DNA of 12,257 bases, from assembly GCA_022560555.1 (NCBI GenBank), contig JADFSZ010000034.1, positions 1-12,257 of the forward strand, given 5' to 3'. Of this stretch, positions 1-12,257 are shown piece by piece. A model generated the notes under the pieces. It worked only from the letters and a program-made list of their open reading frames with translations. It did no database searches and was not told the DNA's origin. This DNA comes from PVC group bacterium (lineage in GTDB: Bacteria > GCA-001730085 > JADFSZ01). The first letter of the stretch is position 1; each line of letters opens with the position of its first letter. A program made the translations under genes and the position numbers.

Positions 1-897
1 AAGATGGAACTGCTCTCCGACAAGGGCAACGGCCAATATTTCTTTCGCTCCATAATTGGTACTGGTCGTATAGTATCCCGGCACCGGATCCCAAAAGTTG
101 ACTGTTACCCGGCCGGCGTACAAAAGGTTGTCATCCGGATTTGTTGCTGTTTCATTCCCTTGATAGACACCAAAGGCATATTTAAACTGTCCTTCATTAA
201 ACTGGCCGTTAACCATCACTCCGTCATCACGGCCTGCAAAAATGGCTGGATAACGCGATACAAGACCCGGAAACTCATATGTTGACAAGTAGTAAGGACC
301 ATCGAGGTTAGAACGATCCGATGGCGGTAAATGGCGGCCAATCCAAATATTAAACGCCTCCATTGGTTGGAACTTTAAGATGGCATCCAGAACATGGACA
401 TCCCCTTCCGCGCCATCATACTCTGTATTGAATTCGAGTAGGAAGTTTTCATATAATTGCCCATTGACGTAAAGTCGGATGCTATCCAGATACGCGTCAT
501 AATCCCAGTTTGTTCCGCTTGGAGATCCATCCTCTCTTCCTACAACAGATGTTCGAATTCCCACACCTATCTTTAATTTTCCACCCGTATTTGACTCAAT
601 CCAAGCCAGGGGAGAATCGGATTCGGGTTTGTAGGACGATTCGGCGGCTGGTTGTTGAGATATTTCAGCTTCAACCGCATTGTTGATACTCTCAACGTCA
701 GTTTCGCTTATCACACCCCGGTCAACCAAAACGTTCATGAGAGCATCGTATCTTGCTGATGCTTCATTGTTTGACTCTGCATAAGAGGTTCGCGTTAGCA
801 ATAACGCAAATAAAATGGCTCCACAAAATAAAAGTTTTGTGGAAAGACTTGTTCCATGTTTCGAAAACATACGCTGTCGCTGCAAAAAACGGTACAT
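1..897 (-). CDS. Outer-membrane beta-barrel porin (porin O/P-like), N-terminal 299 codons; C-terminus lies beyond the window start
   Basis: The reverse frame is open from 897 down to 1, with no stop in the window, so it is absent from the ORF track. ATG at 895-897 is preceded by AAAGGAG (904-910) with a 6-nt spacer. A second in-frame ATG lies at 868-870. Translation begins MYRFLQRQRMFSKHGTSLSTKLLFCGAILFALLLTRTSYA/ESNNE, a signal peptide with an AXA-like cleavage site. It continues with amphipathic strand-like segments rich in Gly, Tyr and Asn (KLKIGVGIRTSVVG, IRLYVNGQLYENFLLEFNTEYD, FKYAFGVYQG, LYAGRVTVNFWD). Family assignment is from pattern recognition only. Confidence 0.6.
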   Translation of the reverse strand, partial: MYRFLQRQRMFSKHGTSLSTKLLFCGAILFALLLTRTSYAESNNEASARYDALMNVLVDRGVISETDVESINNAVEAEISQQPAAESSYKPESDSPLAWIESNTGGKLKIGVGIRTSVVGREDGSPSGTNWDYDAYLDSIRLYVNGQLYENFLLEFNTEYDGAEGDVHVLDAILKFQPMEAFNIWIGRHLPPSDRSNLDGPYYLSTYEFPGLVSRYPAIFAGRDDGVMVNGQFNEGQFKYAFGVYQGNETATNPDDNLLYAGRVTVNFWDPVPGYYTTSTNYGAKEILAVALVGEQFHL

Positions 898-967
898 TAC
901 GGGCTCCTTTCGAGATAGCTCTCATTAAAAGATTTTAAAGGGATTGAATACGATAGGATATTGCGTT

Positions 968-984
968 CGCAAGCAACATGCCAA
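968..984 (-). promoter_or_regulatory. Sigma54 (-24/-12) promoter upstream of the porin gene
   Basis: The minus strand reads TTGGCATG-TTGC-TTGCG, against the consensus YTGGCACG-N4-TTGCW. GG and GC are spaced correctly. The element lies about 70-85 nt upstream of the porin ATG. Confidence 0.6.
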
Positions 985-1060
985 CATTTAAAGTTTTCGT
1001 AAACATTCAATAATAAATGTTTTATGGAAATTGAGAGATTAGGCGGGGGATTATAAAAAT

Positions 1061-1071
1061 TACATTTTTGT
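1061..1071. promoter_or_regulatory. Candidate enhancer (UAS) site TACATTTTTGT upstream of the porin sigma54 promoter
   Basis: Exact copy of the arm of the 2672-2715 inverted repeat. It lies about 80 bp upstream of the -24 GG. It is embedded in a local AT-rich palindrome, ATAAAAAT-tac-ATTTTTGT. A TTGTATTT direct repeat occurs at 1068-1075 and 1078-1085. Confidence 0.35.
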
Positions 1072-1095
1072 ATTTTATTGTATTTAATAATTCAT

Positions 1096-2646
1096 TTATG
1101 TATTTTTTTGGTAGAGCTTCGACCGGATATCATGCTTTTTAATCTTGTACCCCAGCATCCGTTCGGTGAGATCAAGCTCTTTCGCAGCATTTTTTTGGTG
1201 CCCCTTGACCTTTTTAAGGGTTTCAATGATCATTTCCTTTTCAATATTGTCTAAATACCGAACAAGGCCCTTTCTTTGAAATTGCGTGTGGGTTGTTTCT
1301 GCCGTCTGAAGCGATGGCGGCAAATGATGGGCCCGGATCACATCCTCATCACAAAGAAGAACCGCTCGTTCCATACAATTTTCAAGTTCTCTGACATTCC
1401 CCGGCCAATGATAACTCACAAGCATATCAATCGCGGGGGTAGAGATTCTTTTTACCGTTTTAAAATTTTCCTTGACGTACTTTTCAAGAAAATGCTCTAC
1501 CAAAAGGATAATGTCGTCTTTACGCTCCCGAAGAGGCGGAAGATATATGGGAAAAACATTGATGCGATAATACAAATCTTCCCTGAATTCCTTCTTCTTA
1601 ATAGCTTCTTCTAAATTTTTGTTCGTTGCGACAATCACACGGATATTTATTTTGATCGTATTGCGCCCGCCCACTCTTTCAAACTCACGCCCTTGAAGCA
1701 CACGCAGTAGTTTGATCTGAAGTGCGTTCGAGAATTCTCCGATCTCGTCTAAAAATATCGTTCCTCCATCCGCCAATTCAAATCGGCCCATTTTTCGCTC
1801 CGTGGCTCCCGTAAATGCTCCTTTCTCATGACCAAAAAGTTCGCTCTCAAGCAAGGATTCCGGCATAGCTGCGCAATTCATCTTAATAAATGCCTTATTC
1901 GCCCGAGGAGAGCTGTAATGAACCGCGTTGGCAACAAGCTCTTTGCCTGTGCCGCTTTCTCCGCGAATCAAAACTGTGGTTGTGCTCGAAGCCACCTGAT
2001 TGATGAGGGCGTACACCTGATTCATGCATCCGCTGTTCCCGACAATACCTTCAACTTGGTAGCGTTCCTTGAGATTCTCCCTCAAGCGAATATTTTCATC
2101 AAATAGCTCTTTTTTTTCTTCTTCGACCAATTGATGAAGTTTTAAAGCTTGTGCGATAAAAGAGGCAACAATATTCAAAATTTTAACGATATCAATAAGC
2201 ACAGCCTTATCGTCAAACTCTTTGTCCACGCTCAGGGCCCCCACAACCCTTTTGTCCATCCGGATCGGCACACATACAAAAGATCGTTTTTTGACAGAAG
2301 TTGACGCGTGAGGACGTGTCCGAAACAAGAAACGCGGATCTTTTCTAATATCAGGCACAATAATCGCCTCTCCTGTTTCCACAACCTTTCCGGTGATCCC
2401 TTCGCCAACCTTGTACACCCCGCGCTGTTTGGCGGCTTCCGTAATGCCATGAGCAACGGTGACCTTCAGCAATTCCTGCTGAGGATCCAGGATCGTGATC
2501 ATGCCCCGGCGAAGCTTGGCATGGATTTCCAGCAGATGAAGAATGGACTCCAGTGTGTGCCTGATGTCCAAGGACTCAACAAGAACCATGGCAATATCAT
2601 GCAGAAGATCAACTTCTTGAAAATGGGCGCGCTTCTTTTTACTCAT
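1096..2646 (-). CDS. Sigma54-dependent transcriptional activator with GAF-AAA+-HTH (NifA-like) architecture and no receiver domain
   Basis: 516-aa ORF. The N-terminal GAF-like region is about aa 12-168 (nt 2143-2613). Walker A GESGTGKE is at nt 1939-1962. The sigma54-contact motif GAFTGA is at nt 1804-1821. Walker B is GGTIFLDEIGE. The C-terminal Fis-type HTH is NAAKELDLTERMLGYKIKKHDI (about nt 1123-1239). Confidence 0.93.
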   Translation of the reverse strand: MSKKKRAHFQEVDLLHDIAMVLVESLDIRHTLESILHLLEIHAKLRRGMITILDPQQELLKVTVAHGITEAAKQRGVYKVGEGITGKVVETGEAIIVPDIRKDPRFLFRTRPHASTSVKKRSFVCVPIRMDKRVVGALSVDKEFDDKAVLIDIVKILNIVASFIAQALKLHQLVEEEKKELFDENIRLRENLKERYQVEGIVGNSGCMNQVYALINQVASSTTTVLIRGESGTGKELVANAVHYSSPRANKAFIKMNCAAMPESLLESELFGHEKGAFTGATERKMGRFELADGGTIFLDEIGEFSNALQIKLLRVLQGREFERVGGRNTIKINIRVIVATNKNLEEAIKKKEFREDLYYRINVFPIYLPPLRERKDDIILLVEHFLEKYVKENFKTVKRISTPAIDMLVSYHWPGNVRELENCMERAVLLCDEDVIRAHHLPPSLQTAETTHTQFQRKGLVRYLDNIEKEMIIETLKKVKGHQKNAAKELDLTERMLGYKIKKHDIRSKLYQKNT

Positions 2647-2671
2647 AATATCTTTTCCATAAACGTTTTAT

Positions 2672-2715
2672 ATACATTTTTGAATTACTTTCTCCCGAAA
2701 GAGACAAAAATGTAT
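2672..2715. repeat. Perfect 11-bp inverted repeat ATACATTTTTG / CAAAAATGTAT (22-bp spacer, nested CTTTC-tccc-GAAAG hairpin) just upstream of the EBP start codon
   Basis: Read directly. The left arm is 2672-2682 and the right arm 2705-2715. The inner 5-bp stem is 2688-2692 / 2697-2701. It sits between the glnA terminator and the EBP ATG (2646). Function as an operator, UAS or RNA structure is not established. Confidence 0.6.
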
Positions 2716-2740
2716 TTTAGGGATCTTTTTGGTTTTGATC

Positions 2741-2786
2741 AAGCAAATAAAAAAGGCTTTTTAACGTGGAGGTTAAAAAGCCTTTT
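2741..2786 (-). terminator. Rho-independent terminator of glnA
   Basis: Perfect 15-bp stem, AAAAGGCTTTTTAAC (2751-2765) and GTTAAAAAGCCTTTT (2772-2786), with a 6-nt loop. On the minus strand it is followed by TTTTTTATTT. It lies 30 nt downstream of the glnA stop. The stem is AT-rich, with only 3 GC pairs. Confidence 0.7.
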
Positions 2787-2816
2787 GATGGTCCGGCTGA
2801 TATTCAGAGATGTAGC

Positions 2817-4259
2817 TTAGATATCGTAGTAGAGAAAGAACTCATAAGGATTGGGACGTAAATCAACCGCCTGAACTTCCTTTTCAAGCTTATAATTGAT
2901 CCACGTATCAATGGCATCTTTTGTAAAAACATCACCTACGAGCAAGAACTCATGATCCTTTTCAAGTTCAAGTAAAGCATCTCTCAAAGAGTAAGGCGTC
3001 TTTTCCACCTTGGCTAATTCTTCGGGAGGAAGATCATAAAGATCTTTGTCCAGCGGCTGTCCTGGATCAATTTTATTCTGAATCCCGTCCAGCCCGGCCA
3101 TTAGCATCGCGGAAAACGCAAGATACGGATTGCAGCTCGGATCCGGAAATCTTGCTTCAATGCGCTTTGTTTTCGGGTTTTCTGAATACATGGGAATTCT
3201 GACCGCGGCAGAACGGTTTCGGCTTGAGTATGCGAGATTAACCGGAGCTTCAAAACCGGGAACCAGACGTTTATAGGAATTCACCGTTGGATTTGTCAAA
3301 GCCGTTAAAGCTTTGGCATGCTTCAAAATTCCTCCGATATAGTGGAGCGCCATCTGAGAAAGTCCCGCATAACCATCTCCGGCAAAGAGCGGTTTTCCTT
3401 CTTTCCACAAAGACATGTGCACATGCATTCCTGAGCCGTTATCACCAAAAATCGGCTTCGGCATGAATGTCGCCGTATATCCGTGTTTTTGGGCAACGTT
3501 TTTAATAGTGTACTTATAGATAAGAAGTTTATCTGCCATATCCACCATCGGCATAAATCGCATATCTATTTCAGCCTGACCGGATGTGGCCACTTCATGG
3601 TGATGAACTTCGATATCCACACCAAGATTGAGAAGTTCCACAACCATCTCGCTTCTCAAATCCTGAAATTTATCGCTTGGAGGGCAAGGAAAGTATCCCT
3701 CTTTATGACGCAGCTTATGTCCTTTGTTGCCTCCCTCTTCTTCCCGACCGGTATTCCATGCCGCTTCAATGGAGTCGATTTCATAGAAGGCTCCGCGAGG
3801 TTCAGCGGAATATTTAACCGAATCAAAAATAAAAAACTCGGCTTCCGGACCAAAAAAGGCCTGATCCGCAATTCCGGTGGATATTAGAAATTTTTCCGCT
3901 TTAACGGCAATATTTCTTGGATCCTTCTGGTACAATTCCTTCGTGATGGGATCTTTGATCGCACAAATCATAAAAACGGTTTTGTGTTTTGTAAATGGAT
4001 CCAACTGAGCTGTTTCAGCCAAAGGCATAACCAACATGTCACTCTCATTTATCGCCTTCCATCCTCGAATGGATGATCCGTCAAATCCCAATCCTTCTTC
4101 AAAGCTCGAAGCATCAACCGCATGCGCCGGCATACTAAAATGCTGCCACGTGCCCGGAAAATCCAAAAACCTAAAATCAACAAACTGGACCCCTTCTTTC
4201 TTAATGAAATCAAGGACCTCTTTTGGCGAATGAAATCGCCTTCCATTTCCACCTGACAT
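2817..4259 (-). CDS. glnA: Glutamine synthetase type I-beta
   Basis: Collinear with enterobacterial GlnA. Shared motifs include FGPEAEFF, the GSI-beta insertion [85 protein letters not shown] and the adenylylation loop [11 protein letters not shown]. The track starts the ORF at 4265, but AGGAGG (4266-4271) abuts that ATG with zero spacing. The ATG at 4257-4259 has a 6-nt spacer, so I call 4259 as the start. Confidence 0.95.
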
Positions 4260-4326
4260 GTCCATCCTCCTTCGTAGGTTTTTGTTTTAAAAGCGAATCC
4301 ATAGATTTATCGGAAAGGCTGTTTAC

Positions 4327-4343
4327 AGCAGAATTCATGCCAA
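4327..4343 (-). promoter_or_regulatory. Sigma54 (-24/-12) promoter of glnA
   Basis: The minus strand reads TTGGCATG-AATT-CTGCT, against the consensus YTGGCACG-N4-TTGCW. The predicted 5' UTR is about 55-60 nt, similar to that of the porin promoter. Confidence 0.65.
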
Positions 4344-4454
4344 GAACCTCTAAGCAGAAAATTCAAGCGCGTCCCAGATCTATCCATGCGCAATTCAATA
4401 ATAGGTAAACGCGTTACAAGAGATATAAACCCAAAGCGAAATATTTAAATAATG

Positions 4455-4498
4455 GCAAATTTGTAATTTCAGAATGGAATTAAGGACAATTTTGTAAC
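4455..4498. promoter_or_regulatory. Candidate tandem enhancer sites upstream of the glnA sigma54 promoter
   Basis: GCAAATTTGTAAT (4455-4467) and ACAATTTTGTAAC (4486-4498) start 31 bp apart, about 3 helical turns. They lie 114 and 145 bp upstream of the -24 GG. The second matches the ACAWTTTTGTA core shared with 1062-1072 and the arms of the 2672-2715 repeat. The sequence is low-complexity and AT-rich, so a chance match is possible. Confidence 0.35.
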
Positions 4499-4627
4499 TT
4501 TTCGAAAGAGGCCTCTCATCCATGTACTCAAATAAAGGAGCAAATCATAAGTCTCTTTAGGCAAAATGTCAAAAGAATTCTTCCGGCCTCCTTCCATCTT
4601 AAAAGAACCGGATTTAAGCCGTAAAAA

Positions 4628-4636
4628 TGCTATAAT
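4628..4636 (+). promoter_or_regulatory. Possible extended -10 element (TGcTATAAT) for glnE
   Basis: TGCTATAAT lies 58 nt upstream of the glnE ATG. There is no convincing -35 hexamer. It conflicts with the hypothetical upstream small ORF at 4566-4697. Confidence 0.25.
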
Positions 4637-4693
4637 CATAATGGATCAGAAACCGCGCAGCCCCAAACTCAAATACAGACCCTGTGGACCTGA

Positions 4694-7600
4694 ATGACTC
4701 CTCTTGATGAAAAAAAATTAGCACAAATCAAAAGCCGACTCCCCCATATCGATGAGACCTTGATTCAAAATCATATTGAGCGATTAGAAGAAGATTATTT
4801 CCTTGAATTCTCAGATGAGGACATCATCACTCATATTCGGGAAATATCTCACCTCTCAACAGACACCGCCTGCAAAATGATTTTCCAAAGATCAAATAAA
4901 GATTTCACAATTACCGTTATTGGGTTTGACACCCAAGGTTCTTTCGCGGTCATTTGCGGCCTTCTGACCTCGGCCGGATTTAATATCCAAGAAGGCAAAA
5001 GCTTTACATATTCAAAATCAACTCCCAAAACCATATCCAAAACAAAAAAACCCATGAGACGCTCTCAAGCCCGGGAGTTGGCCAGACAAACATTCTATCT
5101 TGAAAGAAAAAAATTCATTACCCAACTCCATTGTGTTCACGCGGCTCCGGATACACTTGCAAAAGATTTTGAATCCCAATTTCAATCGCAGCTTAACCTG
5201 TATCACGGATACCTCATCGACAACAAAATTAAGGAAGTTCAAAAGGAGATCAATCGCCTTATTCAGGACCACCTGATAGGTCTGGTTCCCAAAAATACAT
5301 CTTCATCCGCCCATCGGTTGCTGCCGATTGATATTCAGTTTGAAAAAGAGGCAAATCAGACAGTTTTGCATATTACGGGACCGGACACGCCCGCATACCT
5401 TTTTTCTTTGGCCAACGCTTTGACCCTGCATGGAATTTCAATTCAAAAAGTCTCTGTCAAAACAAAAGGCGCCTTCGTGGATGACAAAATCACTATCACA
5501 GACATGTACGACCGTCCCCTAACCCAGCCCCATTATTTACAAAAACTTAAAATGGCTGTTGCCAGTATCAAACAGTTTACACATCTTCTGCCTCTCGCAA
5601 CCGATCCGACGGCGGCTATGCATCAATTTCATCAATTTATCGATGACTTAATGACCAAATCTAATTACGCCCTATCCCCGTTTGATAAAGACGAAAATTT
5701 ACTAATGGCCTCTCTGGCAAAAATTTTCGGCGCAAGACCTCACATTTGGGAAGACTTTATTCGCATGCAGCATGAAAATCTGCTTCCTTTTCTTAAAAAT
5801 ATCGGTCATCTTGAAAAGTCAAAATCCAAAGAGGTTATGCTTGATGAACTTCAAAATTCATTATCAAAAGTCAAAGGATTCGACCGACAAGTCAAAGCCA
5901 TCAATGAATATAAAAATGAAGAGCTTTTTCGTATTGATCTTGTTCACTTAATCTATCCCAGTATTACCTTTATTGAATTTGCCGAACAGCTCACACAGCA
6001 CGCCGAGGCAATTATCAGCACAACAGCAAATTTAATTTACCACTATTTAGAAGAGCAACACGGGACCCCCTCGAACAAGGACGGTTCCGTCTGTTCTTTC
6101 GCCTTATTCGGCCTTGGAAAATTCGGAGGGCAAGAACTTGGTTATGCTTCAGATTTAGAAATTGTTTTTCTCTATGATGAAAATGCTCAAACAAATCATT
6201 CTAATAATGCCATTGGTAACTCGGTTTTTTTTATCAAATTCGTGCAAAATCTTTTAAAGGCTCTTCCGGCAAAAAACGCGGGCATATTCGAAATTGATCT
6301 TCGCCTGCGCCCGCACGGAAAAAAAGGTCCTCTAGCAAGCTCCTTGAACCGCTGGGGTGAATATTACCTCAAAGATGGGGGCGCTTATGATTATGAACGT
6401 CAAGCTCTCATTCGCTTGCGTCCGATTTATGGCAACACGGATTTTTGTGGCAAAGTAATGGAAATTCGAGATCAGATTATTTATTCCGAGAGTTCCATCT
6501 CTGTCAAAAACTCCATCGAGATCCGCAATAAACAGATTCTTAAAAATGTGACTCCGGGAAAAATCAATGCAAAATTTTCCAAGGGGGCTTTAACCGATAT
6601 TGAATACGCCATTCAGTATCTTCAACTGGCGCATGCCCATCAGCACCCAAAATTGCGGACACCAAATACTATTCAGGCTATGGAATATATGCTCGAAACA
6701 GACATTCTCACACCGACAGAATTTGAAAAACTATATAATAATTACGCTTTTTTACGTCGTGTGATCAATGCTCTACGCATGGTGAGAGGTAACGCAAAAG
6801 ATCTTGAAATCCCTGACCTGGCTTCCGAAGAGTTTATTTTTCTCGCCCGCAATCTTGGATATGTGTCAAAGGAATCCCAATCGGCCGAAGACCAGCTTTT
6901 CAAGGATATCGAGCTTACACTTAAAACAACATATGTTTTTTACAAAGCAAAATTCATCGAAAAGAAAGAAACTGCCTTTGAGGAATCGGGGCTGCCGGGG
7001 CTTCTGCTACAGAAAAAAATGAGCGAAAATGAAGTCACGCGAGTGTTGGCATCCCTCAAGGTTCAGGACACAAAAAAAATTCACGGTATCCTGAAATCAC
7101 TTATTCAAGAAGTCGAAGACAAAAACACCCTCGTTGCGGTCCTTGTCCTTGCGGAAAGACACATCCGCCGATCACCCGATCCGGATAAAGTCATCGTTAA
7201 CTTCGGAAATTTTATTATTGAAAGTTCAAAACAGCATATCTCTCTTAAACAGTTGTTGTATCAGCCAAAATACATTGAGATACTCATCACTCTTTTCGGT
7301 TTTAGCGATTATCTAACAATCATCCTAACCAAGAATCCTCAACTCCTCCTTACGATCACAAACGACCGTCTCCTTCTTTACAACAAAACTCACGAACATT
7401 TCGCTTCTGAACTCAGTTCCTGCGCGCCGTTTACAAATGATATTCGAGAAAATTTACGCATGATCCAAAAATACAAAAATTCCGAAACTCTCAGAATCGG
7501 CCTCAGGGACATTTACCTCAACAAACCATTCGAACAAATTGTTCGTGAATTGTCCGATTTGGCCGACACGATTGTAGATCGTATTTACCGAAATATTCTT

Positions 7601-8479
7601 ATACAGAAGGATCATGAGGAACTATTGAGACATCAATCTATTATTGCTTTAGGCAAACTTGGTTCAAGAGAGCTCAATTACAGTTCTGATATCGACCTTG
7701 TTTTTGTCCACACCGGGAAAGATACACATATCAAAGCGCTCAACAAAGTAAATATACAATTAATTCAGCTTCTGACGACCCCTTCGGATCTAGGACAACT
7801 TTTTCGTGTAGATACACGCTTAAGGCCCTATGGGAAATCCGGGACTTTGAGCAGCTCTGTTGAATTTTATAAGAAGTATTACAAAGAAAAAGCCGAAGGA
7901 TGGGAGATACAGTCATGGTTAAGGGCTAGATGCATATCCGGAAATTTTGAAATGGGAGAAAAACTGATCAGCCAAATTCAAAAGTCCGCCATCCAACCTA
8001 AGAATTATCAAAATATTCATGCCAGTATAAAGACAATGCGTCAAAAAACTCTTAAGCAACTTTCCCAAAAAGATCTTCTTGAACGCGATGTCAAAAATGG
8101 CCGTGGAGGTATTCGAACTATTGAGATGATCGTCCTCAATCTTATTTTACAACACAGCAATACACACCCGACTCTTCAGACAGGAAACATCCTTTTAGGT
8201 TTGGAAAAACTTATTCATTTTCGAATTATCGAACCAGAGATTTATCGGACATTAAAAAAAAGTTATAAGTTTTTAAGAACAGTAGAACACCGTATTCAGC
8301 TTCTCGGTTTGCAACAACGTCACGTTTTGCCTGATGACACAGAAGAGCTCGGACGTATTGCAAAACGAATGGGTTTTGAAGACCGCCTAGATAACACCGC
8401 CCTAGACCAATTCAAAAAGACTTATCAATCGATCACCGAACAGATTCAAACTCTGTCTGAAAAGCATCTGGAAAGCTAA
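4694..8479 (+). CDS. glnE: Glutamine synthetase adenylyltransferase / adenylyl-removing enzyme (GlnE) with an N-terminal tandem ACT-domain extension
   Basis: 1261-aa ORF with two GlnE-type nucleotidyltransferase cores. The first is GLGKFGGQELGYASDLEIVFLYD (nt 6110-6178) followed by FEIDLRLRPHG. The second is ALGKLGSRELNYSSDIDLVFVH (nt 7646-7711) followed by FRVDTRLRPYG. Each is followed by a GlnE helical domain (KFSKGALTDIEYAIQYLQL; VKNGRGGIRTIEMIVLNLIL). N-terminal ACT-like segments are FTITVIGFDTQGSFAVICGLLTSAGFNIQEG (aa 71-101) and TVLHITGPDTPAYLFSLANALTLHGISIQKVSVKTKGAFVDDKITITD (aa 223-270). An in-frame TGA at 4691-4693 precludes an upstream extension. Confidence 0.9.
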   Translation: MTPLDEKKLAQIKSRLPHIDETLIQNHIERLEEDYFLEFSDEDIITHIREISHLSTDTACKMIFQRSNKDFTITVIGFDTQGSFAVICGLLTSAGFNIQEGKSFTYSKSTPKTISKTKKPMRRSQARELARQTFYLERKKFITQLHCVHAAPDTLAKDFESQFQSQLNLYHGYLIDNKIKEVQKEINRLIQDHLIGLVPKNTSSSAHRLLPIDIQFEKEANQTVLHITGPDTPAYLFSLANALTLHGISIQKVSVKTKGAFVDDKITITDMYDRPLTQPHYLQKLKMAVASIKQFTHLLPLATDPTAAMHQFHQFIDDLMTKSNYALSPFDKDENLLMASLAKIFGARPHIWEDFIRMQHENLLPFLKNIGHLEKSKSKEVMLDELQNSLSKVKGFDRQVKAINEYKNEELFRIDLVHLIYPSITFIEFAEQLTQHAEAIISTTANLIYHYLEEQHGTPSNKDGSVCSFALFGLGKFGGQELGYASDLEIVFLYDENAQTNHSNNAIGNSVFFIKFVQNLLKALPAKNAGIFEIDLRLRPHGKKGPLASSLNRWGEYYLKDGGAYDYERQALIRLRPIYGNTDFCGKVMEIRDQIIYSESSISVKNSIEIRNKQILKNVTPGKINAKFSKGALTDIEYAIQYLQLAHAHQHPKLRTPNTIQAMEYMLETDILTPTEFEKLYNNYAFLRRVINALRMVRGNAKDLEIPDLASEEFIFLARNLGYVSKESQSAEDQLFKDIELTLKTTYVFYKAKFIEKKETAFEESGLPGLLLQKKMSENEVTRVLASLKVQDTKKIHGILKSLIQEVEDKNTLVAVLVLAERHIRRSPDPDKVIVNFGNFIIESSKQHISLKQLLYQPKYIEILITLFGFSDYLTIILTKNPQLLLTITNDRLLLYNKTHEHFASELSSCAPFTNDIRENLRMIQKYKNSETLRIGLRDIYLNKPFEQIVRELSDLADTIVDRIYRNILIQKDHEELLRHQSIIALGKLGSRELNYSSDIDLVFVHTGKDTHIKALNKVNIQLIQLLTTPSDLGQLFRVDTRLRPYGKSGTLSSSVEFYKKYYKEKAEGWEIQSWLRARCISGNFEMGEKLISQIQKSAIQPKNYQNIHASIKTMRQKTLKQLSQKDLLERDVKNGRGGIRTIEMIVLNLILQHSNTHPTLQTGNILLGLEKLIHFRIIEPEIYRTLKKSYKFLRTVEHRIQLLGLQQRHVLPDDTEELGRIAKRMGFEDRLDNTALDQFKKTYQSITEQIQTLSEKHLES

Positions 8480-8493: not shown

Positions 8494-10335
8494 TCATTTT
8501 CCCGTGGGCTTTTGTCCCCGGCTAACACGTTTTCTCTCGACTTCCTTTAAATGCAGTTTTCTCAAGCGAATATTTTTTGGAGTGATTTCAACAAGTTCAT
8601 CGTCTTCGATAAATTCCAGAGCAAATTCAAGAGTGATTTCTCTAGGGGTAATCAGCTGCATGGCGTCATCCGAACCCGCGGCGCGCATATTGGTGAGTTT
8701 TTTACCTTTCAGCACATTCACAACGAGATCAGCCCCTTTATTATTGACCCCAACAATCATCCCTTCATAGAGTTTCTTTCCGGGCTTCACAAACATTTCC
8801 CCTCGAGGCTGCAAATTAAAAATCGAATATCCCACAGCTTCCCCTTCCGATTGCGAGATAAGAACCCCGCTCTGACGTTTCGGCATATCACCTTTGTAGG
8901 TTTGATACTCAAGAAAATTCTGATACATGATCCCGGTTCCGCGTGTCATCCGCAAGAAGTCAGATCGAAAGCCAATCAAAGCGCGAGACGCAATCACAAA
9001 ATCCATCCGGCAGCTTCCGGTTGAGGTTGTCTTCATGTCTTTCATTTCGGCCTTTCTGACTCCGAGAGCTTCCATGACCGACCCTTGATATTGACTCTCA
9101 ACTTCAATCACAAGCTCTTCGACCGGTTCATGTGTTTGCTCACCCATTTTTTTCAATATGACTTTGGGACGTGATACCTCGAGTTCATACCCTTCCCTTC
9201 GCATGGTCTCGATTAATATCGCGAGATGAAGTTCTCCCCGACCTGAGACCTTAAATCGCTCTCCATTCTCTACTTCTTCAATCTTGATCCCCACATTGAC
9301 CATCGCTTCATGAAGAAGCCGTTCACGAATATGCCTGGAAGTCAAAAAACGCCCTCCGTCTTTACCGGACATCGGGCTGGTGTTGTGAGAAAAGTTCATC
9401 GAGATCGTTGGTTCATCGATTTTGATGGCAGGCAAGCCCTTAGGTTTTTCGTTATCCGCGATGGTTTCTCCGACTTCAACCCCCTCGACTCCCGCGATCA
9501 AAATAATATCTCCGGCTACGGCCTCTTCGGTCTCAACACGGGTCAGCCCGCAATATTTCATAATTTTTGTGATTTTCCCTTTAGTAACAGAGTTGTTCCG
9601 TTTTACGCACGCCACAGCATCTCCGACGGAAACCGATCCGCAGAACACCCGTCCGATCGCTATGCGGCCGACAAAGGAGTCGTAATCCAGCATTGTGACT
9701 AGCATTTGAAGCGGTAATTCCGGATCGGCCACGGGAGGCAAAACACGATGAAGAATAGTTTCTAGAAGGGGCTTTATAGAATCACGTGCGTCATCCAAAT
9801 CGATCACAGCATACTCGTCTTTACCCGAAGCATAGACAATCGGAAAATCCAGCTGTTCATTTGTGGCATTCAGTTCACAAAACAGATCAAATACGCTATC
9901 CGCTACTTCATCGGACCTCGCGCTCGGCCGGTCAATTTTGTTGATCACAAGAATGGGTTTTAGATGAAGCTCAAGGGATTTTTTCAGTACATATTTCGTT
10001 TGCGGCATGGGCCCTTCGGAGGCATCGACTAAAAGCAGAACTCCGTCAACCATCTCAAGGATCCTCTCCACTTCTGATCCAAAGTCCGCATGCCCCGGCG
10101 TGTCCACGATATTGCATTGGACCCCTTTAAACTCAAAGGAAGCAATTTTCGAAAATATCGTAATTCCCCGTTCCTTTTCGATAGGGTTCGAATCCATCAC
10201 GGTTACTTCACCCTCTTTAAACTCATACGCGCCCGTGTATTTGAGGATCGCGTCCATCAGTGTTGTTTTTCCATGATCAACATGAGCAATAATGGCCACA
10301 TTACGTACATTTTTTCTTCGCTTAAGATTCGGCAT
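8494..10335 (-). CDS. typA: Translational GTPase TypA/BipA
   Basis: 613-aa ORF. The G domain has AHVDHGKTTL, DTPGHADFGSEVER and NKIDR. The overall layout is EF-G/LepA-like with the TypA-specific C-terminal region. It ends at TGA 8494-8496. Confidence 0.95.
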   Translation of the reverse strand: MPNLKRRKNVRNVAIIAHVDHGKTTLMDAILKYTGAYEFKEGEVTVMDSNPIEKERGITIFSKIASFEFKGVQCNIVDTPGHADFGSEVERILEMVDGVLLLVDASEGPMPQTKYVLKKSLELHLKPILVINKIDRPSARSDEVADSVFDLFCELNATNEQLDFPIVYASGKDEYAVIDLDDARDSIKPLLETILHRVLPPVADPELPLQMLVTMLDYDSFVGRIAIGRVFCGSVSVGDAVACVKRNNSVTKGKITKIMKYCGLTRVETEEAVAGDIILIAGVEGVEVGETIADNEKPKGLPAIKIDEPTISMNFSHNTSPMSGKDGGRFLTSRHIRERLLHEAMVNVGIKIEEVENGERFKVSGRGELHLAILIETMRREGYELEVSRPKVILKKMGEQTHEPVEELVIEVESQYQGSVMEALGVRKAEMKDMKTTSTGSCRMDFVIASRALIGFRSDFLRMTRGTGIMYQNFLEYQTYKGDMPKRQSGVLISQSEGEAVGYSIFNLQPRGEMFVKPGKKLYEGMIVGVNNKGADLVVNVLKGKKLTNMRAAGSDDAMQLITPREITLEFALEFIEDDELVEITPKNIRLRKLHLKEVERKRVSRGQKPTGK

Positions 10336-10771: not shown

Positions 10772-11605
10772 TCAATCAATACTTTTGATTTCGATCGACC
10801 GGATTTTATAATCACCCTCATAATAGTTCTCATGTGGCTCGCCTGTAACAAAATACTCCTGGTACTTTTTTTCAGTATGCCAGACTTCGTCAATCGGAAC
10901 ACGAGATTGCTCCAATAAAATACCTTTGTCATCTGAGACACTTAAAACATATTCGTAAGTTGTCTTTTCAATTTCGATTTTATACCAGGCGTCTTTTTGG
11001 TATTCCACACCTTTCACCCAATTAAACTCCCATTTATCGGTGCCACCATTATAGGAAACAAGCTCATTGTTTTCATCAAAATAGACCATAAATATCGGAT
11101 TCGGCATCCCATGCCCCCAAACGTTGTTATCCACATCGATAACAAGTTTGCGGTGCTGATGCCACCAGTCATTGGTATAATGTTCCGTCGGGGCCTGATC
11201 CGTAATCGCGATCAGATAACAGCCATTTTCATTTTTCGGCCCTTCTCGATACTCCTGATCACGGTTGTAGTTCTCAATATTTTTCAAATCATAATTGATT
11301 TGACCAATGACAACACTAACCTTGTATTTTTTTGGTAAATGTTGTGTCGATCGGATAATAGCCGAATCCCGGTAGGAATCTGACTTTTGCAGGGCGAATC
11401 CACTAAAACCATCAATGAGAAACGTCCCGCCTCGAAAGAGTTCAAACGTCAGTTGATTGTTCTTTCCAAAAGCTTTCCCATCCTCGGCAACAATCGGATC
11501 ATGGAATTCTTCTTTAAAATTATAGGCTCCATCCAAGCGAGTACATCCAATAAAGAGTCCGGCAAAGAACAAAAGAACAAAGCCGTATAGTATTTTATGG
11601 GGCAA
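10772..11605 (-). CDS. Hypothetical lipoprotein, 277 aa, probably beta-rich
   Basis: TTG start at 11603-11605 with AAGGAG (11612-11617) and a 6-nt spacer. The N-terminus MPHKILYGFVLLFFAGLFIGC fits a lipobox (L-F-I-G-C). The mature part is rich in aromatic and charged residues (TNDWWHQHRK, WGHGMPNPIF, WEFNWVKGVEY). I recognise no family. Confidence 0.75.
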   Translation of the reverse strand: MPHKILYGFVLLFFAGLFIGCTRLDGAYNFKEEFHDPIVAEDGKAFGKNNQLTFELFRGGTFLIDGFSGFALQKSDSYRDSAIIRSTQHLPKKYKVSVVIGQINYDLKNIENYNRDQEYREGPKNENGCYLIAITDQAPTEHYTNDWWHQHRKLVIDVDNNVWGHGMPNPIFMVYFDENNELVSYNGGTDKWEFNWVKGVEYQKDAWYKIEIEKTTYEYVLSVSDDKGILLEQSRVPIDEVWHTEKKYQEYFVTGEPHENYYEGDYKIRSIEIKSID

Positions 11606-11619
11606 GGGGGACTCCTTAT

Positions 11620-12081
11620 CTATTGAGGATAATCTAATTTGATAACAATATCTTGACTCATTTTGGTAAGCGAGATCGCAGAATTTGAAAATTTCGGTAC
11701 GCTCATCACGATCTTTTGTCCATTTAAAAATCCGACTCCTTCTGTCGGAAACCCCATCGGGCCCATACCAAGCCTTTTGTTGCGATTTTCATCATGAACA
11801 ACAGACACAGCATATTCCCCAAAGGGGATGCCCTCACATTCACCATCGATGCTCATTTGCCCAACTTCTAGTTCAATCCATTGAAATTCATAAGCATGTT
11901 CGATACGAGTAGGATAGCCTTTTGGGCTGTTAAAAAGTGAAACACCAATCATGCCGGCATGCTTGTTCATTCCCTCAACACGGACTAAAAGAATCGTATA
12001 ATCAATGTCTTCTGCTTGCGCAAGGGGAATTAGAAAAAACCCAGTCATTATGCCAAAAAATATGATTTTTAATTTTTCCAT
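11620..12081 (-). CDS. Secreted DUF2141-family protein
   Basis: Matches the DUF2141 pattern: VRVEGMNKHAGMIGVSLFNSPKGYP ... FGEYAVSVVHDENRNKRLGMGPMGFPTEGVGF. The signal peptide is MEKLKIIFFGIMTGFFLIPLAQA/ED. I prefer the ATG at 12079-12081 (AAAGGA 8 nt upstream) to the track's TTG at 12141, which would overlap the upstream gene. Confidence 0.8.
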   Translation of the reverse strand: MEKLKIIFFGIMTGFFLIPLAQAEDIDYTILLVRVEGMNKHAGMIGVSLFNSPKGYPTRIEHAYEFQWIELEVGQMSIDGECEGIPFGEYAVSVVHDENRNKRLGMGPMGFPTEGVGFLNGQKIVMSVPKFSNSAISLTKMSQDIVIKLDYPQ

Positions 12082-12122
12082 TTTAAGCATCCTTTGTTTT
12101 TTGAGCACATTTAGTTGACAGT

Positions 12123-12257
12123 TTATTGTAAAGCCACGCAAAAAACAATGCCTCCAATAAAAGCGTCAATAAAACCAAAAACAAAACCGATAAGACTGTC
12201 GACTAGAGTACGACTATATCCGGGATAGATACTAAAAATCCTGGCAACAATATCCTG
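12123..12257 (-). CDS. C-terminal 44 codons of a small membrane protein; N-terminus lies beyond the window end
   Basis: The reverse frame is open from 12257 to TAA at 12123-12125. Translation is ...QDIVARIFSIYPGYSRTLVDSLIGFVFGFIDAFIGGIVFCVALQ*, ending in a Gly-zipper-like hydrophobic helix. It has the same orientation as the DUF2141 gene and lies 41 nt upstream of it. Confidence 0.45.
   Translation of the reverse strand, partial: QDIVARIFSIYPGYSRTLVDSLIGFVFGFIDAFIGGIVFCVALQ

Follow-up and report, generated by a model that had tools for sequence, protein, structure and literature searches.

A glnA locus flanked by a GlnE with GlnD-type ACT domains and a GAF-containing sigma-54 activator in an uncultured PVC-group bacterium

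Introduction

Can the nitrogen signals that govern glutamine synthetase (GS) be read by sensor domains built into the effectors themselves, in place of GlnD and PII? The question is raised by a locus of an uncultured PVC-group bacterium in which glnA is flanked by a sigma-54 activator (enhancer-binding protein, EBP) and by an unusually long GlnE. An initial annotation had assigned an N-terminal GAF domain to the former and two N-terminal ACT domains to the latter, and had proposed that the pair may replace GlnD, PII and NtrBC, as a combination not known to have been described. Here we find that both effectors carry real small-molecule sensor domains, the GAF domain recognised by Pfam and the ACT pair by profile homology to GlnD, and that the genomic neighbourhoods speak against replacement. 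The locus is probably a core ammonium-assimilation locus, in which glutamine input on GlnE would be added to PII control.

Results

Organisation of the glnA locus

The window, that is, the whole stretch of DNA analysed, is a complete 12,257-bp contig of a metagenome-assembled genome (MAG). The activator gene and glnA lie on its minus strand and glnE (4694-8479) on its plus strand, in the arrangement first described (Table 1). The reported lack of glnB, glnD and ntrB also holds for the window: tblastn with E. coli queries gave no match to GlnK, AmtB, NtrB or the NtrC receiver in the 12,257 bp, absences that carry no weight for the whole genome. The E. coli GlnD query returned a marginal 94-residue match (E 0.007, 29 bits); a GlnD gene in the window was rejected, this match being the N-terminal region of glnE.

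Table 1. Features of the window, with positions in the 12,257-bp contig.
Feature	Position	Strand	Basis or remark
5' part of porin gene (OprO/OprP-like), running off the contig end	1..897	-	translated ORF; Pfam Porin_O_P 27.2 bits
Sigma-54 -24/-12-like element TGGCATGTTGCTTGCG	968..983	-	~70 bp upstream of porin start codon
Palindrome TACATTTTTGTA, candidate upstream activator site (UAS)	1061..1072	.	88 bp upstream of porin -24 element
GAF-AAA+(GAFTGA)-HTH_8 sigma-54 activator, Nlh1/NifA-like class, without receiver	1096..2646	-	Pfam, NCBIfam and PDB matches
Palindrome, third copy (TACATTTTTGTC on - strand)	2703..2714	.	abuts -10 of the activator sigma-70-like promoter
Sigma-70-like promoter TTGATC-17-TAAAAT of activator gene	2714..2742	-	weak consensus match, 9/12
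Intrinsic terminator after glnA	2751..2786	-	15-bp stem, then T run
glnA, type I GS, adenylylation tyrosine Tyr410 kept	2817..4265	-	TIGR00653, motif
glnA sigma-54 promoter TGGCATGAATTCTGCT	4327..4342	-	62 bp upstream of ATG; position conserved in related loci
Degenerate second palindrome copy GCAAATTTGT	about 4455-4464		31 bp from the 4485..4496 palindrome
Palindrome TACAAAATTGTC (- strand), candidate UAS	4485..4496	.	153 bp upstream of glnA -24 element
Sigma-70-like promoter TTGACA-17-TATGAT	4544..4572	-	11/12; upstream of UAS and glnA sigma-54 promoter
glnE residues 1-58, helical lead-in, homologous to the segment before the GlnD ACT domains	4694..4867	+	
glnE residues 59-150, ACT1, low-confidence insert at residues 106-122	4868..5143	+	
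glnE residues 212-301, ACT2, conserved DTPxFL loop	5327..5596	+	
glnE residues 302-765, adenylylating (AT-type) nucleotidyltransferase half	5597..6988	+	motif GKFGGQELGYASDLEIVF at residue 475
glnE residues 766-1261, deadenylylating (AR-type) nucleotidyltransferase half	6989..8479	+	motif GKLGSRELNYSSDIDLVF at residue 987

The glnA product is a type I GS (TIGR00653, 684 bits) with the adenylylation motif kept, Tyr410 being the equivalent of E. coli Tyr397/398. To place the locus among its relatives, we surveyed 10 kb around the gene in 80 related genomes or loci encoding the same ACT-GlnE module. In 31-34 of the 80, glnA lies within 10 kb of ACT-glnE, and in 26 it is directly upstream on the same strand; as expected of a GlnE, the window protein has a partner GSI that carries the adenylylation tyrosine and is encoded by a linked glnA.

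A circularly permuted GlnE of a broad family

The window GlnE matches GlnE (PF03710, 300.6 bits) and GlnD_UR_UTase (PF08335, 132.3 bits) in two stretches each, and both halves have an intact G-x(n)-D-x-[DE] motif with the catalytic acidic pair kept. GKFGGQELGYASDLEIVF resembles the AT motif at position 689 of E. coli GlnE, and GKLGSRELNYSSDIDLVF the AR motif at position 161. Because comparison of the halves with E. coli GlnE alone does not separate AT from AR, and because the NCBIfam GlnE models place the second half inconsistently, the assignment was based on motifs and transitive homology. The first half of the window protein corresponds to the C-terminal half in each of the three canonical GlnE models, and that of the long homologue P0033 to the N-terminal half. 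Residues 2-723 of the window GlnE align with residues 522-1232 of P0033 (428 bits) and residues 770-1261 with its residues 3-497 (223 bits); alignment with P0024 gives the same permuted pattern. The window GlnE, ordered ACT-ACT-AT-AR, is a circular permutation of AR-ACT-ACT-AT, and it departs from the canonical order with AR at the N-terminus and AT at the C-terminus. This non-collinear arrangement probably lowers its scores, which fall below the NCBIfam GlnE equivalog cutoffs (PRK11072, 432.8 against 487; PRK14109, 425.2 against 625; PRK14108, 363.1 against 724). Nor does it classify as a GlnD, since Pfam detects no HD domain and TIGR01693 gives 128 against a cutoff of 519.

The family is large, with 554 cluster representatives for the ACT module and 346 confirmed matches in a one-genome-per-species collection. 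It covers more than 10 phyla, including Planctomycetota, Verrucomicrobiota and other PVC lineages, Desulfobacterota, Spirochaetota, Nitrospirota, Chloroflexota and Gemmatimonadota. Its members occur as AR-ACT-ACT-AT, as split genes and as ACT-ACT-AT-AR, and the ACT pair stands directly before AT in every one of these architectures. The long forms with central ACT domains (P0024 Thermoanaerobaculia, P0033, P0077 Planctomycetaceae) and the separate ACT-AT and AR genes of the Nitrospirota have the same three modules at 30-35% identity; unlike both, the window GlnE is a permuted fusion. These proteins are annotated as "hypothetical" or plain GlnE, and we found no paper on an ACT-bearing GlnE of any of the three forms in the literature searched; the family, though widespread, is apparently undescribed. 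The claim of novelty made for the whole combination thus stands for ACT-GlnE and falls for the GAF activator, which has a precedent in Aquifex Nlh1 (PMC9866876).

The N-terminal module is a GlnD-type ACT pair

The N-terminal ~300 residues of the window GlnE are an addition ahead of the GlnE/GlnD_UR_UTase domains. Pfam ACT_4 reaches 24.2 bits (E 5.7e-5) here, short of the gathering cutoff of 27, and homologues exceed the threshold (P0098, ACT, 36.7 bits in two stretches; P0033, ACT, 28.4 bits). In the NCBIfam GlnD models, the C-terminal ACT region matches residues 209-289. A profile of 27 ACT-module sequences aligned by hhalign with E. coli GlnD at 96.8% probability (E 2e-10) over 214 columns, covering the whole GlnD C-terminal regulatory region with its lead-in helices, ACT1 and ACT2; the central region of E. 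coli GlnE, used as a negative control, gave no match (0.5% probability). The expected ACT fold (beta-alpha-beta-beta-alpha-beta) is recognised twice: the AlphaFold (AF2) model contains two beta-alpha-beta-beta-alpha units (pLDDT 88.5, pTM 0.88), and its Foldseek matches are ACT and ACT-like domains. Profile alignment, predicted structure and NCBIfam models all support the assignment of GlnD-type ACT domains to the N-terminus of GlnE.

What the pair senses is a separate matter. ACT domains bind many different ligands, and the best structural matches of the model, the ACT-like domains of large glutamate dehydrogenase, IlvA, aspartate kinase and SerB2 (Foldseek), differ in ligand. With only 16% identity to E. 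coli GlnD across the aligned columns, the pair could bind another metabolite (a different amino acid, 2-oxoglutarate or a nucleotide) or serve mainly as a platform for dimerisation or PII docking. We consider this unlikely, however, as the homology is specific and extends over the entire GlnD regulatory region, lead-in helices included, and the ligand-loop motifs D-x-x-G (ACT1) and DTPxFL (ACT2) are conserved across the 27 diverse sequences. Moreover, the module always precedes the AT half, whose activity is activated by glutamine in E. coli GlnE. The C-terminal ACT module of GlnD senses glutamine, and, judged by this homology, it is most likely that the pair lets GlnE sense glutamine directly, on top of PII control.

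PII and GlnD accompany ACT-GlnE in many relatives

Of the 80 surveyed loci, 17 have a PII gene within 10 kb of ACT-glnE, 16 have amtB there and 9 encode a full-length GlnD homologue. The GAF activator and ACT-GlnE occur together in nine of the 80; all nine loci with a detected GAF domain in the orthologous activator also contain glnK, which argues against replacement. The usual order in these activator loci is EBP-amtB-glnK-(glnD)-(glnA)-ACT-glnE, and in a PVC-group relative (Kiritimatiellae L071) EBP, ACT-glnE, amtB-glnK and glnA are all found together. These PII and GlnD neighbours come from relatives whose GlnE is 30-44% identical, not from the window MAG, and the closest relatives (P0003, P0004, L005) have no nitrogen genes beside glnE. 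Since PII and GlnD genes neighbour ACT-glnE in many relatives, we read the ACT input as an addition to PII and, in many lineages, to GlnD, and the proposed replacement is not supported.

A strictly one-component organism, without GlnD, PII and NtrBC, in which ACT-GlnE senses glutamine and the GAF activator 2-oxoglutarate, would account for a 12-kb window with real sensor domains and with no PII, GlnD, NtrB or receiver domain. Around the nearest GlnE relatives (L005, L057, P0003, P0004), the available sequence likewise contains neither PII nor GlnD, and to our knowledge GlnD is missing from many phyla. We nevertheless regard such an organism as very improbable here, given the glnK of every orthologous-activator locus, that of the PVC-group Kiritimatiellae included, and the counts of PII and GlnD beside ACT-glnE; a 12-kb contig gives no evidence of genome-wide absence, and PII is, as far as we know, near-universal in bacteria possessing amtB.

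An intermediate arrangement is possible, and we put it forward tentatively. In lineages without GlnD, the GlnD glutamine-sensor module may have moved onto GlnE, making the cascade GlnD -> PII -> GlnE one tier shorter. GlnE would then read glutamine itself, unmodified PII and the GAF activator would report 2-oxoglutarate and energy status, and the three architectures would record fission and re-fusion. Loci with amtB-glnK and no glnD are seen in Spirochaetota, Kiritimatiellia and Chitinivibrionia; these, and possibly the window bacterium, are candidates for GlnD-less lineages.

A GAF activator in the probable role of NtrC

The activator (516 residues) has a Pfam GAF domain at residues 27-168 (52.8 bits), so that Pfam supports this sensor in the window protein itself and the ACT pair through homologues. 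Sigma54_activat (residues 201-367, 245 bits), AAA_lid_14 and HTH_8 follow, and the GAFTGA motif is visible in the translation. A GAF domain stands where NtrC has its receiver, as first proposed: no receiver domain was found by Pfam in the protein or by tblastn in the window, and the NtrC model TIGR01818 gives 344.6 against 558.6. The closest solved GAF domain is that of Aquifex aeolicus Nlh1 (PDB 4G3K, 93 bits; also 4G3W), with which the activator shares the GAF-AAA+(GAFTGA)-HTH architecture of the Nlh1 type, a likeness of sequence rather than an established orthology.

Beside this likeness, the activator marginally passes the NifA model (TIGR01817, 548.1 against 528.85); NCBI names it NifA, and its best full-length PDB match is a NifA (9QQ6, 380 bits). 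It might accordingly be a genuine NifA that serves nitrogenase genes elsewhere, incidentally placed beside glnA, a reading that we find highly improbable. NifA GAF domains score 59-63 bits, clearly below Nlh1, and full-length orthologues (49-57% identity) adjoin amtB-glnK in 9 related loci. The consistent neighbours are glnA, amtB and glnK rather than nif genes, and nifH was detected neither in the window nor in the 80 related loci. The NifA-type site TGT-N10-ACA has a single match in the window, which falls within the porin ORF and does not exceed chance expectation, and the sigma-54 promoters have another conserved palindrome upstream. The "NifA" label is probably wrong, and the GAF activator very probably acts in the role of NtrC. 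Nlh1 is a proposed regulator of nitrogen assimilation, not of fixation; the NifA GAF domain of A. vinelandii binds 2-oxoglutarate and that of A. brasilense is acted on by GlnB, so that both PII and 2-oxoglutarate are possible inputs to NifA-type GAF domains (PMC9866876).

Conserved promoters and palindromes

The -24/-12 element of glnA is of the GG-N10-GC type and lies at the right distance from the gene. Taken by itself, the window has no more sigma-54 matches than expected by chance; equivalents of this element precede glnA and/or amtB in 9 of 10 related loci, in agreement with the suggestion that the GAF activator works on sigma-54 promoters. The 3,640 bp upstream of the sigma-54 promoters of related loci contain 10 copies of ACA-W4-TGT, often as pairs 30 bp apart, and the other ~163 kb contain 13, an enrichment of about 35-fold. 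All three window copies of the palindrome (TACA-N4-TGTA) lie in regulatory intergenic regions, and the copy at 2703..2714 is likely, from its position, to be an autorepression site of the activator gene. The sigma-70-like promoter at 4544..4572 and the glnA sigma-54 promoter form a tandem resembling glnAp1/glnAp2, although such sigma-70-like matches are not above chance in count.

The nearest homologues of the porin (51-59% identity) head porin-urtABCDE operons, followed by urease genes in the P0279 loci. In a homologous porin locus (L092), TGGCACACTTGTTGCT occupies the place equivalent to the element at 968..983, and the same sigma-54 and palindrome signature was found at the homologous porin-urt operon. 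By analogy with these operons, the porin gene probably heads a porin-urtABCDE-urease operon.

Discussion

We consider it likely that the locus combines the regulon of an Nlh1-type activator with an ACT-AT-AR GlnE whose glutamine input is added to PII. The GAF-AAA+-HTH activator would bind the TACA-N4-TGTA palindromes and switch on the sigma-54 promoters of glnA and of the porin, the probable head of a urea uptake/urease operon, and would probably repress its own sigma-70-type promoter. Its GAF domain would receive a nitrogen signal, either a metabolite such as 2-oxoglutarate or contact with PII, or both. With binding and activation of this kind, the job of NtrC would therefore be done without a histidine kinase. 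The GS, with its adenylylation tyrosine, would be modified by the bifunctional GlnE, in which glutamine on the ACT pair may turn adenylylation on, deadenylylation off, or both, as a built-in glutamine input. This input would add to signalling by a PII protein, which we infer for the window organism, and in many lineages also to that by GlnD.

The window GlnE resembles E. coli GlnE (ATase; AR domain 1V4A, AT domain 3K7D) in its two homologous PF03710 and PF08335 halves, its conserved AR- and AT-type catalytic motifs and its partner GS. Unlike that enzyme, it places AT before AR, is longer (1261 against 946 residues) and has the ACT module before AT, with nothing similar in the E. coli centre. 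With GlnD it shares the regulatory module, which is homologous to the GlnD C-terminal region, and distantly related nucleotidyltransferase and PF08335 domains; unlike GlnD, it has two nucleotidyltransferase halves with GlnE signatures, no HD domain and an N-terminal ACT pair. Alternatively, the protein could be a GlnD analogue assembled from GlnE-like halves, with PII or some other protein as its target. This would suit its scores under the GlnE equivalog cutoffs, its GlnD sensor module and its frequent PII neighbours, but is hardly credible, since both halves bear the AT- and AR-specific signatures of E. coli GlnE, HD is missing, no gene neighbours ACT-glnE more often than glnA (in tandem in 26 loci), the GS target tyrosine is kept, and a second PII-modifying enzyme would be redundant because GlnD itself neighbours ACT-glnE in 9 loci.

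As in the enterobacterial NtrB/NtrC system with glnAp1/glnAp2, the sigma-54 promoter of glnA has candidate activator sites upstream and, beyond them, a possible sigma-70 promoter; the activator gene has a probable autoregulatory site, and the predicted regulon includes a urea scavenging operon. Unlike that system, the window has a GAF sensor in place of a receiver domain and kinase gene, and the palindrome departs from the NtrC consensus.

The GS adenylylation cascade is textbook knowledge, but nearly all that is known of it comes from Proteobacteria and Actinobacteria. GlnE enzymes that contain their own GlnD-type ACT sensor, in three domain arrangements, are encoded by a large group of bacteria from many phyla, and, because this sensor is a discrete, separable module beside the AT half, ACT-GlnE is a tractable enzyme for studying how glutamine would switch AT and AR. 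The work also defines a predicted NtrC-independent nitrogen regulon, in which an Nlh1-type activator and TACA-N4-TGTA sites would serve the sigma-54 promoters of glnA, amtB-glnK and the urea porin operon. The naming of such activators as NifA is probably a systematic mis-annotation, which would inflate predictions of diazotrophy in MAGs.

Domain architecture of the window GlnE

The window is a complete MAG contig of 12,257 bp, labelled "PVC group bacterium" by NCBI, on which seven genes are readable (table below). In Pfam, its GlnE has PF03710 and PF08335 twice each, preceded by roughly 300 additional N-terminal residues, which the initial annotation had read as two GlnD-type ACT domains. In Pfam this extension matches ACT_4 only, below threshold. 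Despite that score, four lines of evidence agree that the extension is an ACT pair: (i) Residues 209-289 are matched by NCBIfam GlnD models, at the C-terminal ACT region of those models. (ii) Homologues of the window GlnE pass the Pfam ACT cutoffs. (iii) When a 27-sequence profile of the module is aligned with E. coli GlnD, the match spans the entire C-terminal regulatory region, helices ahead of ACT1 included (96.8% probability, E 2e-10). (iv) An AlphaFold model of residues 1-346 (md8ad28a80fe3; pLDDT 88.5, pTM 0.88) starts with a helical bundle and continues into two ACT-like beta-alpha-beta-beta-alpha units, and its Foldseek matches are ACT or ACT-like domains (large mycobacterial glutamate dehydrogenase, GL3, the IlvA regulatory domain, aspartate kinase and SerB2). 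The protein lacks an HD domain and is therefore not a GlnD. A degenerate ACT pair in the centre of E. coli GlnE was considered and rejected, since the 27-sequence profile found no match there. The top Foldseek matches are to the large (180-kDa) glutamate dehydrogenase of M. smegmatis, in its N-terminal ACT-like region (7JSR, 9HV0; E ~1e-6); judged from the predicted fold, another nitrogen enzyme may share a similar regulatory module.

A full-length search with the window GlnE brought up many GlnE homologues 1200-1300 aa long, of two architectures. The window protein and its closest relatives carry the ACT pair at the N-terminus; in others, among them Thermoanaerobaculia and Planctomycetaceae, it lies between the nucleotidyltransferase halves. 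By BLASTP, window residues 2-723 correspond to residues 522-1232 of P0033, a GlnE with such a central pair, and residues 770-1261 to its residues 3-497; the Thermoanaerobaculia homologue P0024 aligns in the same pattern. Judged by these alignments, the window GlnE is a circular permutation of the type with the central ACT pair. Neither phmmer against 1V4A and 3K7D nor BLAST against the E. coli halves could tell the adenylylating (AT) half from the deadenylylating (AR) half, an ambiguity resolved by the catalytic motifs and the collinear relatives with a central pair. In the latter, the AR motif comes first and the AT motif second. On all three canonical GlnE profiles, the first half of the window GlnE falls in the C-terminal half, that of P0033 in the N-terminal half. 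Motif order and profile mapping together give AR-ACT-ACT-AT for the central-pair type and ACT-ACT-AT-AR for the window protein. The ACT pair thus always stands immediately ahead of AT, and the catalytic sites are intact in both halves. The window protein would work like a GlnE. Compared with that family, it has the expected domains, motifs and partner, whereas its scores fall short of the curated equivalog models and its domain order is not canonical. It is publicly annotated as "hypothetical protein" (MCH7504549.1), probably because the permuted order depresses the equivalog scores. Our literature search found no publication on ACT-bearing or permuted GlnE.

Features of the window and catalytic motifs of its GlnE (forward-strand positions unless residues are stated)
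Feature	Position	Strand	Remarks
Porin ORF, OprO/OprP-like	1-897	-	runs off left contig end
-24/-12 element, porin	968-983	-	~70 bp upstream of porin
Palindrome copy, porin			88 bp upstream of porin promoter
Sigma-54 activator, 516 aa	1096-2646	-	GAF, Sigma54_activat, AAA_lid_14, HTH_8 (Pfam)
Strong terminator (15-bp stem), then weak sigma-70-like promoter	2703-2786		after glnA, ahead of activator gene
Palindrome copy, activator gene			abuts -10 of sigma-70-like promoter, just past glnA terminator
glnA, type I GS	2817-4265	-	
-24/-12 element, glnA	4327-4342	-	62 bp upstream of glnA
Palindrome copy, glnA			153 bp upstream of glnA promoter; degenerate partner 31 bp away
Sigma-70-like promoter	4544-4572	-	TTGACA-17-TATGAT, 11/12; upstream of candidate activator site and sigma-54 promoter of glnA
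glnE, 1261 aa	4694-8479	+	
Catalytic motif, AT type	GlnE residue 475		GKFGGQELGYASDLEIVF; as E. coli 689 (ELGYSSDLDL)
Catalytic motif, AR type	GlnE residue 987		GKLGSRELNYSSDIDLVF; as E. coli 161 (ELNFSSDIDL)
typA/bipA	8494-10335	-	
ORF, 277 aa	10772-11605	-	no family match in Pfam or NCBIfam; lipoprotein-like N-terminus
DUF2141 protein	11620-12141	-	signal-peptide-like start

Breadth of the family and split forms

Exhaustive HMMER searching with the 346-aa module retrieved 554 cluster representatives at E<=1e-3 (303 at E<=1e-10), in which the module is N-terminal or central in proteins of GlnE length; a word-index homology search with the same module alone had given no match. No close relative emerged from a single-protein scan of species genomes. 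For locus finding, a 6-sequence alignment was usable, whereas the 27-sequence alignment was too diverse, and a degenerate peptide pattern gave 346 confirmed matches in a one-genome-per-species collection. The best 80 of these 346 constitute the related loci discussed here. They span Planctomycetota, Verrucomicrobiota, Kiritimatiellia, Lentisphaerota, Desulfobacterota, Spirochaetota, Nitrospirota, Chloroflexota, Gemmatimonadota, Zixibacteria, Latescibacterota, Chitinivibrionales and other groups, and in nearly all of them the module is N-terminal. Examples of closed and high-quality genomes with the ACT module are CP070692, CP070696, OZ244999, OZ245326 and OX638340. Their ORFs are mostly 1250-1350 aa (ACT-AT-AR), with about 15 complete ORFs of 750-850 aa that hold ACT-AT only. 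Four Nitrospirota loci (L064, L066, L081 and L083) pair an ACT-AT gene (~750 aa) with an adjoining divergent AR-type gene, and in L064 and L083 amtB-glnK-glnD-glnA lie beside the split GlnE. Such split forms plausibly stand between the two fused orders as intermediates. In other loci the ACT-AT gene has no AR gene within 10 kb (L013, L040, L047, L052 and L058, from Zixibacteria, Phycisphaeraceae, Gemmatimonadota and Latescibacterota).

The sigma-54 activator and its NifA label

Pfam supports the GAF domain of the activator and detects no receiver domain; GAFTGA is present. The earlier picture of glnA flanked by a GAF-bearing activator and an ACT-bearing GlnE is therefore borne out at the domain level. 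NCBI names the activator "nif-specific transcriptional activator NifA" (MCH7504547.1), and it scores 548 against the NCBIfam NifA model, just above the cutoff of 528.85. Its GAF domain is nearest to that of Aquifex Nlh1 (4G3K, 93 bits), compared with 59-63 bits for NifA GAF domains. Neither the window nor any of the 80 related loci contains nifH, and the single match to the NifA-type site TGT-N10-ACA in the window lies inside the porin ORF, at chance level. The NifA label probably arises because TIGR01817 systematically over-calls activators of the Nlh1 type. For Nlh1 itself, control of nitrogen assimilation rather than fixation has been put forward (PMC9866876). The window activator resembles Nlh1 and NifA in architecture and NtrC in predicted role; a paper on the Desulfovibrio sigma-54 regulome contains neither this activator nor its motif (PMC4641369).

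A 7107-bp contig, apparently of the same MAG as judged by a neighbouring accession number, carries a C-terminal piece (91 aa) of an activator that is nearly identical but differs in its last 12 residues (P0272, MCH7505049.1). The fragment matches the strain variant P0274; the MAG bin may hold two strains, or the genome a second activator copy.

Neighbourhoods argue against a general replacement of GlnD and PII

The initial annotation had suggested that the two sensor-bearing effectors replace GlnD, PII and NtrBC. Within the window, the reported absence of glnB, glnD and ntrB holds for this one 12,257-bp contig: tblastn with E. coli GlnK, AmtB, NtrB and the NtrC receiver gave no match, and E. 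coli GlnD gave a marginal 94-residue match in the N-terminal region of glnE (E 0.007, 29 bits), which is not a GlnD gene. We then surveyed the best 80 of the 346 loci by tblastn, up to 10 kb on each side. glnA was found in 31-34 of the 80, depending on the score threshold (immediately upstream of ACT-glnE on the same strand in 26), PII in 17, amtB in 16 and a full-length GlnD homologue (250-310 bits) in nine. Orthologues of the window activator with a detected GAF domain (49-57% identity) co-occur with ACT-GlnE in nine, with two more cut at the locus edge, and all nine also carry glnK. The usual orders are EBP-amtB-glnK-ACTglnE in Spirochaetales and EBP-amtB-glnK-glnD-glnA-ACTglnE in Desulfobacterota, where EBP is the activator. 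L071, a Kiritimatiellae locus likewise of the PVC group, combines EBP, ACT-glnE, amtB-glnK and glnA. Since ACT-GlnE shares loci with PII and often with GlnD, a general replacement is not favoured. The idea finds partial support: its GlnD/PII part is contradicted in relatives, whereas its NtrBC part is plausible given the Nlh1 precedent.

No nitrogen genes were seen beside glnE in the loci of the nearest relatives of the window GlnE. The closest genome relative, L005, whose GlnE is 44% identical, has a gene for a receiver-domain protein (216-566) directly upstream of ACT-glnE instead of glnA or a GAF activator.

Promoters, a recurrent palindrome and the predicted regulon

The number of -24/-12 elements in the window is not in itself above chance, but such an element stands immediately ahead of glnA and/or amtB in nine of ten related loci. 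A palindrome with the core ACA-W4-TGT (full form TACA-N4-TGTA) recurs upstream of these sigma-54 promoters, often as pairs 30 bp apart. Within these loci, the core is found 10 times in the 3,640 bp upstream of the promoters and 13 times in the other ~163 kb. All three window copies are in regulatory positions. The copy at the activator gene suggests autorepression. The layout at glnA resembles glnAp1/glnAp2 of enterobacteria and, together with the site at the activator promoter, recalls NtrC autoregulation.

The nearest homologues of the porin head porin-urtABCDE operons (L090-L093), followed by urease genes in two of those examined, and one such locus has the same sigma-54 promoter and palindrome. 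By this sequence comparison, a urea-scavenging operon probably continues past the left contig end. The recurrence of promoter and palindrome at glnA, amtB and porin-urt loci leads us to predict a regulon of ammonium assimilation and nitrogen scavenging, an NtrC-like role.

The domain identities, the permutation and the breadth of the family were observed, as were the gene neighbourhoods and the conservation of promoter and palindrome; these observations accommodate the following model. The GAF activator would receive the nitrogen signal, which could be 2-oxoglutarate, a ligand of the GAF domain in A. vinelandii NifA, and/or contact with PII, as in A. brasilense NifA (PMC9866876). From TACA-N4-TGTA sites it would switch on sigma-54 promoters, and it would repress its own promoter. 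The ACT region of GlnD is regarded as binding glutamine, and the ACT pair of GlnE would do likewise. Through its fusion to the AT half, the pair would promote adenylylation of GS Tyr410, around which GlnA keeps the adenylylation motif, and/or inhibit the AR half. Where PII exists, it would still act on GlnE and/or the activator.

Other features of the window

Rfam detected no RNA families across the window, hence no glnA RNA or glutamine riboswitch. The 277-aa ORF and the DUF2141 gene adjoin each other (10772-12141, -), and neither appears tied to the nitrogen locus. The 80 related loci yielded no typA. On L089, a strain-variant contig whose GlnE has the same length (1261 aa) and is at least 90% identical, the expected place of typA holds only a called 100-aa BipA_C fragment (5210-5512), followed by ~1.6 kb with no called gene. 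In the window, typA/bipA adjoins the glnA-glnE pair, and bipA is likewise beside glnA in E. coli K-12 MG1655 (L087), which may reflect old synteny or coincidence.
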